From the NCBI GenBank assembly GCA_051294905.1, contig CM119371.1, forward strand, positions 496,001 through 560,000: DNA of 64,000 nt. Direction: 5' to 3'. This document shows positions 59,374-64,000 of the stretch, piece by piece. A program made the translations under genes and the position numbers. The notes under the pieces are model-generated. The model searched no databases, had not been told where the DNA came from, and saw nothing but the letters and a program-made list of their open reading frames with translations. The stretch comes from Botryllus schlosseri. Taxonomy: Eukaryota. Every line of letters begins with the position of its first letter. Within the stretch, counting starts at the first letter, position 1.

Positions 59374-59636
59374 AAAACAGGTGTTATAATGCGAAGTGAC
59401 CTACATATTCTGCGGAGACAAATGACTATGGTATCCTGTCGACTGAATCACTACGCGAATTGCTTCCCATCGAACAGGTTGGTCTAGAAGCAATCCGTGA
59501 GCGTAAAACAGGTGTTTTAATGTGTAGTGACCTACATTCCGCAGGGCAAATGACTATGGTATCCTGTCCGCTATAGTGGATGTATCGTGAATTGTTTCCC
59601 GTGGAACAGGTTGATCTAGAAGCAATCGTGAGCGTA
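59374..59636. repeat. Two-copy tandem repeat, period about 131 bp
   Basis: aaaacaggtgtt...gtgacctaca...caaatgactatggtatcctgtc...gaacaggttg.tctagaagcaatc.gtgagcgta starting at 59374 and 59505. Confidence 0.9.
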
Positions 59637-59762
59637 CACAATACCAAATACAATCGCTCAGCGCAAAACTGACCCACTGTGTTAAGTATATCACGAATCA
59701 CAGATGACACGAAAATATGCACCAACCATTGTGTATTGTGAAACAGTAGACACACATATATA

Positions 59763-60359
59763 TCATTCTTGTAACTCTAGAATTCGAGTTAACTGGTCAA
59801 TCTTTAATCTTCCATCCTGATTTTTGACGCGCGTTAGTGCATACTTTCTCCCTTTTTTTAAACCAGGCGAGGTCCACTGATCGAGTTTGACAGTTCCGGT
59901 GTCATCGCTTAACGTAAAACTATGTAGTTTGAGGTCTTCGCCATTGACGGGGATGGATTTTTCCTCATGGTCGGTACATATCGCATTGATTGAAATATAT
60001 TTTTCGCTGCCTATATTGTTACAGCTTACAACGGCGTATTCGTCTGGGGTGTGTTTTGATCTGCCATGAATAGTAACAGACGAACTGCGACCGAGTAGCA
60101 AAGTAGGTTCCCCCGTAAACTTATCGAGTCGAGCCCAGGCTGTTTTGATGAGTAGTCGCTTGCGTTTCCTAAAAGCTTTTTCGATGGGTTTGAACAGTTC
60201 TTGGTTGAAACAAGTGAAGGGTATAGTATTGTTCTCGTTGTCTATAAATACACCTTTCAGGTAACTACTAACGAGCCCTTTTTTCGGGGAGGAAACAAAC
60301 TTTACTGCAAGTCGCAGGTCCGATGATTTTCCAATGGTCAATCCTTGTATACTATCCAT
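59763..60359 (-). CDS. Tandem OB-fold single-stranded DNA-binding protein (RPA/SSB-like), 198 aa
   Basis: Two OB-like units: KGVFIDNENNTIPFTCFNQ and SINAICTD...HSFTLSDDTGTVKLDQW...KKGRKYALTRVK; intact ATG-to-stop ORF with TATA box. Confidence 0.75.
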   Translation of the reverse strand: MDSIQGLTIGKSSDLRLAVKFVSSPKKGLVSSYLKGVFIDNENNTIPFTCFNQELFKPIEKAFRKRKRLLIKTAWARLDKFTGEPTLLLGRSSSVTIHGRSKHTPDEYAVVSCNNIGSEKYISINAICTDHEEKSIPVNGEDLKLHSFTLSDDTGTVKLDQWTSPGLKKGRKYALTRVKNQDGRLKIDQLTRILELQE

Positions 60360-60404
60360 TGCTATGATGTCCAGATAATGATCATTACCGTGGGGTTACT
60401 CGTA

Positions 60405-60428
60405 TTTTATAGACCTAGTCACGTGACC
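60405..60428 (-). promoter_or_regulatory. E-box plus TATA promoter of the SSB gene
   Basis: Minus strand reads GGTCACGTGAC-TAGGTC-TATAAAA, about 46 nt upstream of ATG 60359. Confidence 0.55.
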
Positions 60429-60555
60429 ATAAACGCGTAGTTACTCGGTTTAGAAGTTTGATAAATCGCCTGAACAGACTTGGTTTGAAATAATCCTTGC
60501 AGGAATTCTGTAAATAAAATCATGGTGATAGTTTTATGATTGTGTAGTCTGAAAT

Positions 60556-60888: not shown

Positions 60889-61015
60889 ATTGTGTAGTTA
60901 CTGACAATAAAAACTGTAAAAATTCCGGTAATTAAGTGATCGTACATCGGAAATTAGAATGAATAAAAGGTTGTTATAATAAACAGAGTAACACGATATG
61001 AAATAGGAAGAAGGT

Positions 61016-61038
61016 GCGCGTGGCGGGAAAGAGGAAGT
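61016..61038. promoter_or_regulatory. E2F-like and Ets-like sites in a divergent promoter
   Basis: GCGGGAAA (61023-61030; reverse complement TTTCCCGC, the E2F consensus) next to GAGGAAGT, in the 251-bp gap between divergent ATGs 60888 and 61140. Confidence 0.45.
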
Positions 61039-61139
61039 AGTTCTGAATAAATAGGTCCTCAGTAAACTGGTAAATCCCACTCGCTCATACCGAATATCAT
61101 CCGTTGATCAGTATACCTCGATTTTAATTTGTGTTAATC

Positions 61140-62027
61140 ATGGCCCAGGCTCAGTTGAACAGATTTAATACCCTCGGGTATGAACCTAATTCTTTTGAGT
61201 TGCAATTTGAAGAAGATGCGGATATTTTGGAGGCCCTCCTACCCGAAGACCTCGTTACTCCAACGACAGAGGTCGTTGAGTGTGATTCCACGACCCCTAT
61301 CGAAAACCAACCACCTCACCGTGACATCACACTACAGGCATGGTTGGAATCACGTGGTTCGAACCAAGTCGCGGTTGACAACCCGACAACCTCGGCTTCG
61401 AGCTTACCCCTTCCAGATGAACCGACAACTTCAATTGTGTTACCAGTTGAGAAACCGGCAACTCCTCGTAAGATTTTTCCAAAATCTAGAGTTCGATCCA
61501 CGGTACCGTCTGAAAAACCGACGACCTCTCGAAGGTTATTTTCCGGCCTACCGAAACCACAGATCCCAATCGAGAAACCGTCAAGTTCTAGAAAGCGAGA
61601 TGTACCCACAACCTCGCAACAAACCAGTCCACCTCCGTGTAAAAAGATATGTCTCTCTAAATCGAAACAAAAACCTTTGGTTCTCAACCAGGTGAAACTC
61701 GGCGAGGGTGAAGATCGGCCGAAGACATCGAGAGAAAGACGACAAGAGGAGAAAATGTGTCTGTACACCGCCAACAAAATTCGAGACCATCTCAAGACTC
61801 TTGATGTGATTAGACCACACCTAGGCGTGATTCTAGGTTTAATTGATTCCCTTACAGAAAAGAAGAAACCTTCCCTGCACAAAATCATTCTCGAAATAAA
61901 AAAGCTATTAGCTTCGGCTATTGAACGCCGTGATATTGATCGGATTCAAAAACAACTGAACGATGCAACCGACCAATTCCTGAACCAGCTCTTAACAATT
62001 AGAACCATCTTGAAATATGATTTGTGA
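61140..62027 (+). CDS. Hypothetical viral protein, 295 aa: acidic N-terminus, Pro/Ser/Thr-rich repeats, basic motifs, helical C-terminus
   Basis: ATG at 61140 (atcATGg); intact ORF; repeats EKPATPRKIF / EKPTTSRRLF / EKPSSSRKR; PPPCKK. Confidence 0.8.
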   Translation: MAQAQLNRFNTLGYEPNSFELQFEEDADILEALLPEDLVTPTTEVVECDSTTPIENQPPHRDITLQAWLESRGSNQVAVDNPTTSASSLPLPDEPTTSIVLPVEKPATPRKIFPKSRVRSTVPSEKPTTSRRLFSGLPKPQIPIEKPSSSRKRDVPTTSQQTSPPPCKKICLSKSKQKPLVLNQVKLGEGEDRPKTSRERRQEEKMCLYTANKIRDHLKTLDVIRPHLGVILGLIDSLTEKKKPSLHKIILEIKKLLASAIERRDIDRIQKQLNDATDQFLNQLLTIRTILKYDL

Positions 62028-62540
62028 TTCAGTGCAATGCATTTATTGTGTGAATGTGAATGTTAATGTGATGTGTATGAAATTACAGATAACAGGCTTA
62101 CAAACGATCGGAAAATCGTAAACACTAGATAGTGCTCGCATTGGGTTAATCTCAACGCAGTCAACTCGGTCTTTTCCACCTGGCCGTCGCCACGAGAGGA
62201 TCTCGAATCTGCGCTCGTGAATATATTACCAATACACGTGTAAGTATACACTGATCTTATTCAATAGACCAAAGTTTGTGTTAACGCGATGTTTTCTTGC
62301 TTCATCGAAACAGAGAAAGAGAAGAAGAATCAAGCCCAATCATCGAACTTATTGCATCGGTGAGTTCTCTGTTTTTTTACTACCTTAAGTTGGTGAACAT
62401 AATTTTGAGGAAGGTTGTTTCTTTGTTTACCAGGTGAAAAAGAACTCAAGATTTCAAGGGAAAAAATATAAGTAAGTGTTACTATCTCGTTGATTATTAG
62501 AATACAGAGTGTGAAATTGAAATCGAATTCAATGTTACAG

Positions 62541-64000
62541 ATGAGCCGTCGCAGAAGACACCGTATCCGTGAGAAAGCTGAATTTCCACCAGATATTGGT
62601 GATGAACGTCAAGAAATTTTAACACAGAACTGGCAAGCCATAAAATCGTATGTAGCAAACATAGGCAGATCTCGAGTGGTGTACAATATTCGGATTATAA
62701 ATCGTCAACTCTCAGCTGTTCGCGAGGACATCGAAGCGATATTCTTCTCTGAATCGTGTAGATTTAAAGTCAACTATTCATCTGGCTGTATTCTATACCA
62801 CACCGAGACTCTAAGATATCGTTATTTTCATGCATCGTCAAATATCGATCGTGTTCTGGATATGCCATTGGCTATTTCATCATTGATACAGTTTGAAAAA
62901 TTTGTAGAATCCATTAGATTGGAAACTGCATTTGATGTATTGCGTAAAGCCCGACCAGATACTAAATCACAGCCTGTTTGTCTAACAAATATACAGTTTT
63001 ACGTATTCCCTAGCGATAGGTTATTGATAGGGTGTACTGATGTTAATCTTCCTCTGTGGCTTACAAAATCGAAATGTGTCATGACACTACTTCATGATAA
63101 AAATCGTAATCGGTATAACGATAATCTGTGTGTATTTCGTTGCATTGGCCACTCGCTCGATCGTGATGCGAAATCATTGGCTGAACAGTATACCCAGGTT
63201 TATGGTGTGAACGTTGTTGGTTGTGTAACTTTTGAAATGTTACCTGACATCGAAAGATTGTTTGATGTAGCGATATCTATCTATCGTAAGACCGATGGTA
63301 AAGCTATTGCTGTCCGACGTAGTACTTATGTAGCCACTCCTGTTTATTTACACCTCGAAAATTCTCATGCTTGCTTGATAACTCAGATCAATCGATACCT
63401 CGAAAGCTATCATTGTGAATCTTGTGGAAAATTTTTCGATCTTGCAACTCATCTGACCAGGCACAACTGCATCACTGAACCTGTCGAGATATTTCCCGGC
63501 GGGATATATAGACCACCTTTGACGGTATTTGAACGAATGGAGATTGAAGGCATAATTGTCCCAAATCATTTACGTTTTTTCAAATATCGGATTGCCTTCG
63601 ATATCGAGAGTATGTTTCAACAATGTGATTTTGATCCCTCAGCTAAAACGACTTACGAGTGGAAGCATATTCCAATTTCCGTTAGTATATCATCAAATGT
63701 AGACGGGTATTTGGAACCACAGGTAATTGTTTCTAATGGTGATCCAATTCAGTTGTGTGAAGAGATGGTAGAGATTTTTCATACAATTCAGAGTCGATCC
63801 TTAAGTCTGTTGCTAGTTGAATACCGTCAATATCTGGATTTGTTTGAATCTAAAATCACAGAGATGAAAGTATTAGACCCCTCGGACAAGCCTTTACCAT
63901 TGGAACGTTTACAAGATGAATTCATGTGCTATCTAAGGCGAATACCAGTTATATCTTTTAATGGTGACAGATACGACTTGAACTGTCTTAAGGTATACTT
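62541..64000 (+). CDS. Protein-primed family-B DNA polymerase (Polinton/adintovirus-like pPolB), N-terminal 486 codons, truncated by window end
   Basis: Hand-translated with no stop: FKVNYSSGCIL...YRYFHASSN, RPDTK, IG...LP, YNDNLCVFRCI, zinc finger CESCGKFFDLATHLTRHNC, ExoI IAFDIES, HIPISVS, ExoII PVISFNGDRYDL; absent from the ORF track because there is no stop. Confidence 0.9.
   Translation, partial: MSRRRRHRIREKAEFPPDIGDERQEILTQNWQAIKSYVANIGRSRVVYNIRIINRQLSAVREDIEAIFFSESCRFKVNYSSGCILYHTETLRYRYFHASSNIDRVLDMPLAISSLIQFEKFVESIRLETAFDVLRKARPDTKSQPVCLTNIQFYVFPSDRLLIGCTDVNLPLWLTKSKCVMTLLHDKNRNRYNDNLCVFRCIGHSLDRDAKSLAEQYTQVYGVNVVGCVTFEMLPDIERLFDVAISIYRKTDGKAIAVRRSTYVATPVYLHLENSHACLITQINRYLESYHCESCGKFFDLATHLTRHNCITEPVEIFPGGIYRPPLTVFERMEIEGIIVPNHLRFFKYRIAFDIESMFQQCDFDPSAKTTYEWKHIPISVSISSNVDGYLEPQVIVSNGDPIQLCEEMVEIFHTIQSRSLSLLLVEYRQYLDLFESKITEMKVLDPSDKPLPLERLQDEFMCYLRRIPVISFNGDRYDLNCLKVY

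Follow-up and report, generated by a model that had tools for sequence, protein, structure and literature searches.

A very probable left arm of a Maverick/Polinton-type virus in the Botryllus schlosseri genome, with a candidate single-stranded DNA-binding protein gene upstream of its polymerase

The right end of a 64,000-nucleotide stretch of Botryllus schlosseri DNA (assembly GCA_051294905.1, contig CM119371.1, positions 496,001 to 560,000; hereafter the window, in which all coordinates are given) very probably holds, from about 59206 to 64000, the left arm of a Maverick/Polinton-type, adintovirus-like double-stranded DNA virus integrated in a eukaryotic chromosome. Mavericks and Polintons are widespread integrating double-stranded DNA viruses of eukaryotes, and the present element is a diverged new member of that known class. 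It is recognized by a rightward open reading frame (ORF) for a polymerase, which the right edge of the window cuts, so that some three quarters of an element of typical size would extend past that edge. The polymerase ORF and its motifs are as follows.

62532-63998, forward strand: polymerase ORF, 489 codons, open at the window end
63129 and 63366, forward strand: vOTU residues Cys200 and His279 respectively, from the motif and invariant alignment columns
63414-63470, forward strand: C2HC/C2H2-like finger, Cys295, Cys298, His311 and Cys313
63597-63611, forward strand: ExoI motif FDIES, amino acids (aa) 356-360
63954-63977, forward strand: ExoII motif SFNGDRYD, aa 475-482

By homology, 62532-63998 encodes the N-terminal 489 aa of a protein-primed family B DNA polymerase (pPolB). 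The ExoI DxE and ExoII FNGxxYD signatures pointed out in an earlier note on this DNA are both present, located in the ORF as FDIES and SFNGDRYD. In a BLASTP comparison the protein was colinear with the 1446-aa homologue P0001 at 27% identity (E 2e-51; the alignment spans aa 33-501 of a 503-aa version of the window ORF starting at TTG), and polymerase motifs A-C are visible in P0001 on reading its sequence. With phmmer, 1828 cluster representatives were found at E≤1e-3, 868 at ≤1e-10 and 211 at ≤1e-30; the closest full-length relative, P0002 (1294 aa), was 37% identical, and the only relative closer than this was a 168-aa fragment, P0006 (67%). The window polymerase is colinear with full-length proteins of 1281-1446 aa. 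The Pfam family DNA_pol_B_2 (PF03175) was above its cut-off in seven of the ten long homologues scanned (not in P0005, P0023 and P0022, nor in P0001), its match starting at the ExoII position, which is where the window ends. No Pfam match above cut-off was found for the window fragment itself, as expected since the piece stops at ExoII.

In an alignment of 12 sequences including the window polymerase, the window protein kept all 26 invariant columns. Among the invariant residues are Cys200 (in NDNLCVFRC) and His279, the four finger residues Cys295, Cys298, His311 and Cys313, Asp357 and Glu359 of ExoI, and Phe476 and Asp482 of ExoII, with Asn477 and Tyr481 nearly so. Compared with PDB sequences, the profile of this alignment matched C2H2 fingers at profile positions 303-326, and no phi29 or adenovirus polymerase at E≤0.1. 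According to Krupovic and colleagues, polinton polymerases begin with a terminal-protein (TP) domain, behind which comes a vOTU cysteine protease whose Cys and His are conserved, homing-endonuclease inserts lying further along (PMC11161782), and the putative TP-like and vOTU regions of the window protein are assigned from its motifs together with that description. Beyond the window's part of the protein, profile positions 802-878 matched Vsr endonuclease PDB chains (E 5e-5), and homologues P0007 and P0011 gave weak Pfam Vsr matches. On these matches, this polymerase family bears a Vsr-type mismatch endonuclease domain between its exonuclease and polymerase parts, which fits the homing-endonuclease inserts reported for polinton polymerases in PMC11161782.

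The element's protein-primed DNA polymerase has its start in the rightward ORF. On homology and published structural work, the N-terminal TP domain of the polyprotein primes replication at the genome ends, the vOTU cysteine protease domain is thought to release the TP domain, and the exonuclease and polymerase domains come next.

The element class is indicated by the gene content of relatives. Metagenome contigs contained 341 relatives of the polymerase, 80 of which were examined as loci, and the long ones carry a conserved rightward gene row downstream of pPolB. Its content was established by a Pfam scan of 31 ORFs of related loci. The first downstream ORF matched Pox_A32 and Adeno_IVa2 above cut-off in locus L001 and below it in L014; in each of the three scanned loci (L014, L001 and L077) an ORF of about 375-456 aa combined an rve integrase match with a chromodomain; the last ORF matched Peptidase_C5 at 21.4 against a cut-off of 21.3 in L014, and below cut-off in L077. 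At the place of the capsid gene, an ORF of about 440 aa gave no Pfam match, and a capsid gene was not identified in the relatives. As judged from these domains, the row has the Maverick/Polinton/adintovirus layout. The placement of the element in that class by the earlier note is therefore borne out, both by homology at the polymerase N-terminus and by the genes that its relatives carry; the note's suggestion of an undescribed lineage is not supported, given 1828 polymerase representatives and the accessory genes upstream of the polymerase already described for adintoviruses by Starrett et al. (PMC8502044). The window polymerase is 26-33% identical to relatives with known gene context. The pPolB phylogeny which the earlier note had proposed as a check was built as a neighbour-joining (NJ) tree on Kimura distances, without support values; it places the window protein on a deep branch with P0002, P0003 and P0005, encoded by contigs of 12-16 kb.

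The remainder of the presumed left arm is organized around the following features.

59206-59373: presumed left terminal segment of the element, exact end not fixed, from contig depth
59374-59636: tandem repeat, 131 bp x 2.0, 81% matching (Tandem Repeats Finder score 341)
59763-60359, reverse strand: orf198, 198 aa, ORF call
60406-60411, reverse strand: TATAAA, 47 bp upstream of the orf198 ATG, pattern scan
60556-60888, reverse strand: orf110, 110 aa, ORF call
60889-61139: divergent intergenic region between orf110 (reverse) and orf295 (forward), from the gene arrangement
61140-62027, forward strand: orf295, 295 aa, ORF call
62360-62433, forward strand: intron of 74 nt, GT..AG, in the leader upstream of the polymerase ORF

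Four unbroken, closely spaced ORFs occupy 59763-63998, where the earlier note had placed them. Seven ORFs of at least 130 aa starting with ATG were counted in the 64 kb, five of them at 59.7-64 kb (two being alternative frames over orf295); the remaining two are one 133-aa ORF and a NACHT-domain exon at 44743-46080 on the reverse strand. Since 100 block shuffles of the window yielded no ORF of at least 190 aa (the longest was 183 aa), chance falls far short of explaining orf198, orf295 and the polymerase ORF; orf110 by itself is not beyond chance, ORFs of at least 110 aa occurring at a mean of 1.32 per shuffle. Repeats internal to the window cover 36% of 1-59030 as against 0% of 59637-64000, in agreement with the earlier description of the ORF stretch as having, unlike the DNA to its left, no recognisable MITE insertion. 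Base composition, measured per kb, ranges over 34-47% G+C in the window, and scans of its full length gave no tRNA (ARAGORN) and no RNA gene (Rfam).

The part between the terminus and the polymerase is an accessory ('early') region that evolves fast and contains three lineage-specific genes, two leftward and one rightward, and on gene arrangement 60889-61139 is presumed to be a bidirectional promoter region. Two further ORFs overlap orf295 (61316-61888, reverse strand and thus antisense, 190 aa; 61180-61695, forward strand, 171 aa); they are probably not genes, arising instead from the stop-poor, repeat-rich middle of orf295. A GTG-start ORF at 59426-59755 on the reverse strand (orf109) overlies the tandem repeat and was treated as spurious.

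The left end of the element was located by comparison with other sequencing runs. In two of these, contig depth is 0 and 2.7 in the bin 59005-59205 but 84 and 50 in the next bin, 59206-59406, and one contig of run X5 matches from 59229 onward only, with unlike letters to the left. The depth jump and the contig break together suggest a left end near 59206-59229, and the break in the X5 contig hints at a second insertion site or a polymorphism. The start of 59374 proposed earlier is the first base of the 131-bp tandem repeat; depth favours 59206-59229 as the end of the element. The tandem repeat (80% over 137 columns in self-BLAST) probably belongs to a terminal repeat or origin region; self-BLAST showed 59031-59760 to have no inverted copy elsewhere within the window. 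Host repeats extend to 59030, and the element is continuous with them. This continuity argues for integration, as does the fact that 20 runs from 8 studies, all with one organism label, contain all or some of the stretch.

Four runs were compared over 58000-64000, two of contigs (X17 and X5) and two of raw RNA (X23 and X21); none of the 20 runs with the stretch is on record as RNA. The X17 and X5 contigs cover 26 and 28 of the 30 bins respectively, and because they differ from the window by 1-5% they are other alleles or copies. Transcription left traces in both RNA runs: in the bulk run X23 (6% read) depth reached up to 1.9 at 60010-60411, and in the single-cell run X21 (3% read) it was 5.75 in the bin 61819-62019 and below 1.2 elsewhere, the reads in that bin being, with orientation as we interpret it, what we take to be sense to orf295. 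One contig of X17, an RNA run by guess only, joins 62359 to 62434 (depth 2.6, shorter side 21 letters), and the intron borders GTGAGT and CAG are readable in the sequence at 62360-62433. These RNA traces and the spliced contig suggest that the element is expressed. The spliced polymerase leader also contains a short upstream ORF (62288-62440, ATG at 62288), whose TGA stop, by sequence reading, is formed across the 62359/62434 junction.

The leftward gene nearest the terminus, orf198, is best read as an OB-fold nucleic-acid-binding protein, an assignment which we consider reasonably likely from the order of elements in its AF2 model, the fold comparisons and the language-model matches taken together. 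The single-sequence model (pLDDT 36.5) gives at aa 16-88, at that confidence, the order strand-strand-strand-helix-strand-strand of the OB fold. VIA-align compared this model with 48,161 chains; the best Z was 4.2 and none reached 5, OB and single-stranded DNA-binding protein (SSB) rows standing at Z 2.9-3.7. Among the best 50 rows, 12 were SSB, RPA or PriB by title, and about 30 are what we take to be OB domains. The Atlas, which compares language-model features, returned a first match at 0.95 (190 of 256 features shared), and all ten best family-bearing matches fell in the OB clan, among them the families tRNA_anti-codon, REPA_OB_2, CDC24_OB3 and OB_Ssb-like; by way of background, ten of ten is also attained by a third of shuffled proteins, and 0.95 by about one in 100. 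No Pfam family reached its cut-off (the top ones were TAXi_C, E 0.052, and RuvA_N, E 0.066), PDB sequences gave nothing below E 0.24, and a large protein search returned 208 candidates and no homologue. The OB-fold SSB of the earlier note is therefore plausible on model order, VIA-align and Atlas, and lacks a Pfam, PDB-sequence or homologue match.

Differences between copies bear on whether orf198 is maintained. Codon-position counts here and below use the listed differences, to which 100 more outside the listing would add. Of the 19 listed differences in orf198, 13 are at third codon positions (binomial P=0.002 for an expectation of one third); 10 of the 19 are synonymous and 9 non-synonymous, and the third-position bias supports coding constraint. 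The TATAAA at 60406-60411 is a candidate promoter element for the gene.

Upstream genes of relatives offer a precedent for this reading of orf198, by position and not by homology. Of 83 ORFs found upstream of related polymerases, 56 were scanned in one set; the other 27 were scanned with the downstream set, overlapped a longer ORF, or were left out by choice. The 56 included five dUTPases, five C2H2 finger proteins and one each of an RPA-type OB protein, PC4, BIR/IAP and an A32-type ATPase. The RPA-type OB protein (L009, 2388-2870, forward strand) matched Rep_fac-A_C at 27.7 bits, below the cut-off of 28.5. The PC4 ssDNA-binding protein (L035, 376-786, reverse strand) matched at E 1.4e-11, and a leftward ORF near the left end of its contig (L016, 462-1025, reverse strand) gave a weak PC4 match and resembled the L035 PC4 domain in a pairwise comparison (E 0.001). 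On these domain matches, related elements carry ssDNA binders of more than one fold upstream of pPolB. Pairwise comparison of orf198 with the RPA-like L009 ORF and with the PC4-like L016 ORF showed no similarity. dUTPase genes are common in the same position, L016 having one in another scan besides the five among the 56. In the literature, no OB-fold SSB or RPA-like gene was found described for Polintons, Mavericks or adintoviruses, the supplementary gene maps of PMC8502044, which may list some, being outside the search; one phrase match for such an SSB, in PMC12220804, was accidental.

As an OB-fold SSB, orf198 would coat the strand displaced during protein-primed replication, as adenovirus DBP and phi29 p5 do, a role which, like the fold, we consider reasonably likely. 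A broader proposal can be offered only tentatively, and we hold it to be doubtful as a whole: that the element is an intact member of a deep, uncharacterized animal branch of Maverick/adintovirus type, that its left-end early region encodes its own OB-fold SSB, and that the fold of the SSB varies upstream of pPolB, being OB/RPA-like here and in L009 and PC4-like in L016 and L035. If this were true, the SSB would be a hitherto unlisted, non-orthologously replaced part of the Polinton replication module, beside two orphan host-interaction proteins.

Several observations weigh against an integrated Maverick-type virus with this gene set. Motifs A-C, integrase, capsid, ATPase, protease, right terminal repeat and target-site duplication would all lie beyond the window, so that the class assignment rests on the N-terminus of one gene and on relatives 26-37% identical. 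Its neighbours in the tree (P0002, P0003 and P0005) are outside the set of relatives with known context, and a scan of IMG/VR with the polymerase alignment matched 58 pattern stretches and yielded no true relative. The near-empty junction bin 59005-59205 (depth 0 and 2.7 in two contig runs) leaves the insertion at this site unconfirmed in other individuals. The RNA-seq check proposed earlier found its traces in X23 and X21, yet the reads are few and carry variant letters, and thus come from another copy or allele. For orf198, each line is weak taken singly (pLDDT 36.5, Z at most 4.2, 9 of 19 listed differences non-synonymous), with no Pfam or PDB-sequence match beside them.

A truncated or decayed remnant, whether just a left arm or an element interrupted further right, of which the open frames are the still-intact part, is a possibility to be taken seriously, if an unlikely one. 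The window shows nothing to the right of 64000, the RNA reads are very sparse, and degraded adintovirus sequences are endogenized in many animals according to Starrett et al. (PMC8502044). Against decay stand four open frames and 26 of 26 invariant polymerase residues kept, the lack of nested repeats in a stretch whose flank has 36% repeat cover, and the third-position bias between copies, which points to recent constraint.

We regard as improbable a capsid-less pPolB element, such as a replicon of the linear-plasmid type or a polymerase gene that some other transposon has taken up. It would account for the polymerase N-terminus being the only link to Mavericks, for three neighbouring genes with no homologue in any related locus, and for the deep branch in the NJ tree. 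Against it, a Maverick-type module with integrase was present in every related locus long enough downstream (L001, L012-L017, L019-L023, L077 and L078), and the TP-vOTU-finger-Exo architecture is shared colinearly.

The earlier note had read the set as an adenovirus-like early toolkit, in which an SSB, orf110 and orf295 would be functional analogues of DBP, of the Bcl-2-like E1B-19K and of E1A, next to pPolB. Precedent for such genes exists: Starrett et al. (PMC8502044) report Bcl2/IAP homologues and motif-defined 'Oncoids' upstream of adintovirus PolB, and one of the relatives scanned here carries a BIR/IAP gene upstream of its polymerase (L059, 7881-8231, forward strand). For the window genes themselves, the pPolB and a plausible SSB, with the OB-fold leads for orf198, are the parts of the comparison that stand.

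orf110 is a real gene, predicted to be all-helical, of no recognized family. Its AF2 model has five helices (pLDDT 46.4), and the listed differences to other copies are all synonymous (four of four), which weakly indicates coding constraint. The large protein search gave three candidates and no homologue, Pfam gave no match at E≤10, PDB sequences gave no match to a Bcl-2 protein, and the Atlas gave no usable match; a pairwise comparison with the small L016 ORF showed no similarity. The Bcl-2 reading of orf110 finds no more than four noise-level rows of Bcl-2 family among the 20 returned by Foldseek against PDB from this low-confidence model (20-22% identity, E 6.7-10, TM 0.18-0.29), none of the 20 being below E 5. 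The fold search in BFVD returned nothing below E 1.3 and no Bcl-2 protein in its best 50 rows, VIA-align wide had its best Z of 6.4 on ribosomal helical hairpins and likewise no Bcl-2 in its best 50 rows, and none of the 56 upstream ORFs of relatives matched Bcl-2.

orf295, also a real gene of no recognized family, has an acidic N-terminus, a middle rich in Pro, Ser, Thr and Lys with three EKPxxxR repeats (at aa 104, 125 and 145), and a helical C-terminus. Its two listed differences to other copies are both non-synonymous, which has no bearing on constraint. PMC8502044 defines an 'Oncoid' by LXCXE next to a CK2 site, together with a CR1-like motif and paired CXXC. A regular-expression scan of orf295 found no LxCxE, CR1-like motif or CxxC, so that by its motifs the protein falls outside that definition; neither orf198 nor orf110 has an LxCxE. 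What is left of the earlier view of orf295 as an E1A-like protein with cell-cycle motifs is a single RRLF (cyclin-type RxL) at aa 131, beside the acidic N-terminus. Two of the three functional analogies, those for orf110 and orf295, are thus unsupported by the tests run here, and the toolkit as a whole is very unlikely. orf110 and orf295 would most likely be host-interaction or regulatory proteins. In tblastn against the 80 related loci, orf198, orf110, orf295 and orf109 gave nothing below E 1.6, and no Pfam or PDB-sequence match was found for the accessory genes, the large protein search having covered orf198 and orf110.

A free viral genome, episomal or contaminating, misjoined to host DNA during assembly is hardly credible: the bin 59005-59205 nearly without depth and the X5 contig that differs left of 59229 would agree with it, but the stretch recurs in 20 runs from 8 studies under one organism label, its contigs differ by 1-5% as alleles or paralogous copies do, and integration is the normal state of this element class.

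An integrated Maverick/Polinton-type virus remains our reading, and its comparison with known systems places both its likenesses and its departures. With Polintons and Mavericks, including the proposed Adintoviridae (Starrett et al. 2021, PMC8502044), it shares the pPolB with TP-like, vOTU and Exo domains, variable accessory genes upstream of PolB and integration in eukaryotic chromosomes, and relatives of its pPolB carry the rve integrase, the A32/IVa2 ATPase and an adenain-like protease. It differs in a polymerase at most 37% identical to any full-length cluster representative and in three accessory genes with no detectable homologue, and pPolB is the only hallmark gene inside the window. 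The small, fast-evolving ORFs stand in the same place upstream of PolB as the adintovirus Oncoid and Bcl2/IAP genes of which PMC8502044 gives an account, whereas orf295 is without LXCXE, CR1 and paired CXXC, and orf110 without a Bcl-2 family match.

The adenovirus E2 module (pol, pTP and DBP) likewise combines a protein-primed B-family polymerase and a terminal protein with an ssDNA-binding protein gene near the polymerase, for which the window has a candidate. Adenovirus DBP is not known to be an OB-fold protein, whereas the window candidate resembles OB-fold RPA/SSB proteins by language-model features. No counterpart of E1A or E1B-19K was found among the window ORFs. In the window protein TP and polymerase would form a single chain together with a vOTU domain, the arrangement described for polintons (PMC11161782). 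Small viral SSBs such as phi29 p5 and B35SSB of Bam35 serve strand-displacing, protein-primed replication, the role proposed here for orf198. The SSBs of protein-primed phages form an atypical SSB group (PMC8276246); compared by description and not by sequence, the leads for orf198 point instead to RPA/tRNA_anti-codon-type OB folds.

The DNA to the left of the element has features of its own. A 313-bp repeat at 58718-59030 is a 98% identical inverted copy of 53790-54102, 4.6 kb apart; its right part appears tRNA-derived by eye, and ARAGORN calls no tRNA in it. Nowhere else in 58000-64000 is RNA depth clear; here it is 8-17 in both RNA runs, the reads having many loose ends, and because of this depth and these loose ends it is read as a transcribed dispersed family resembling short interspersed nuclear elements or miniature inverted-repeat transposable elements. 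A second dispersed repeat family (58075-58717) adjoins it on the left, with copies at 8579-10182 at 74-79% identity in both orientations. The NACHT-domain exon at 44743-46080 (reverse strand; 445 aa, open; NACHT E 5.5e-13), with weak matches to the NOD2 winged helix and NLRC4 HD2, belongs, on these domain matches, to an immune gene of the host, of NLR type, at a distance of about 13 kb from the element.

As seen in the window, the element is a partial view of a further diverged member of a very large family, with three orphan accessory genes. To our knowledge, Maverick/Polinton replication has never been reconstituted. If orf198 is indeed a viral SSB, then with the neighbouring TP-vOTU-polymerase the element would have the whole minimal set for protein-primed replication that is familiar from phi29 and adenovirus. 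With its open frames, signs of constraint and traces of transcription, this copy lends itself well to work on the virus class within its host.

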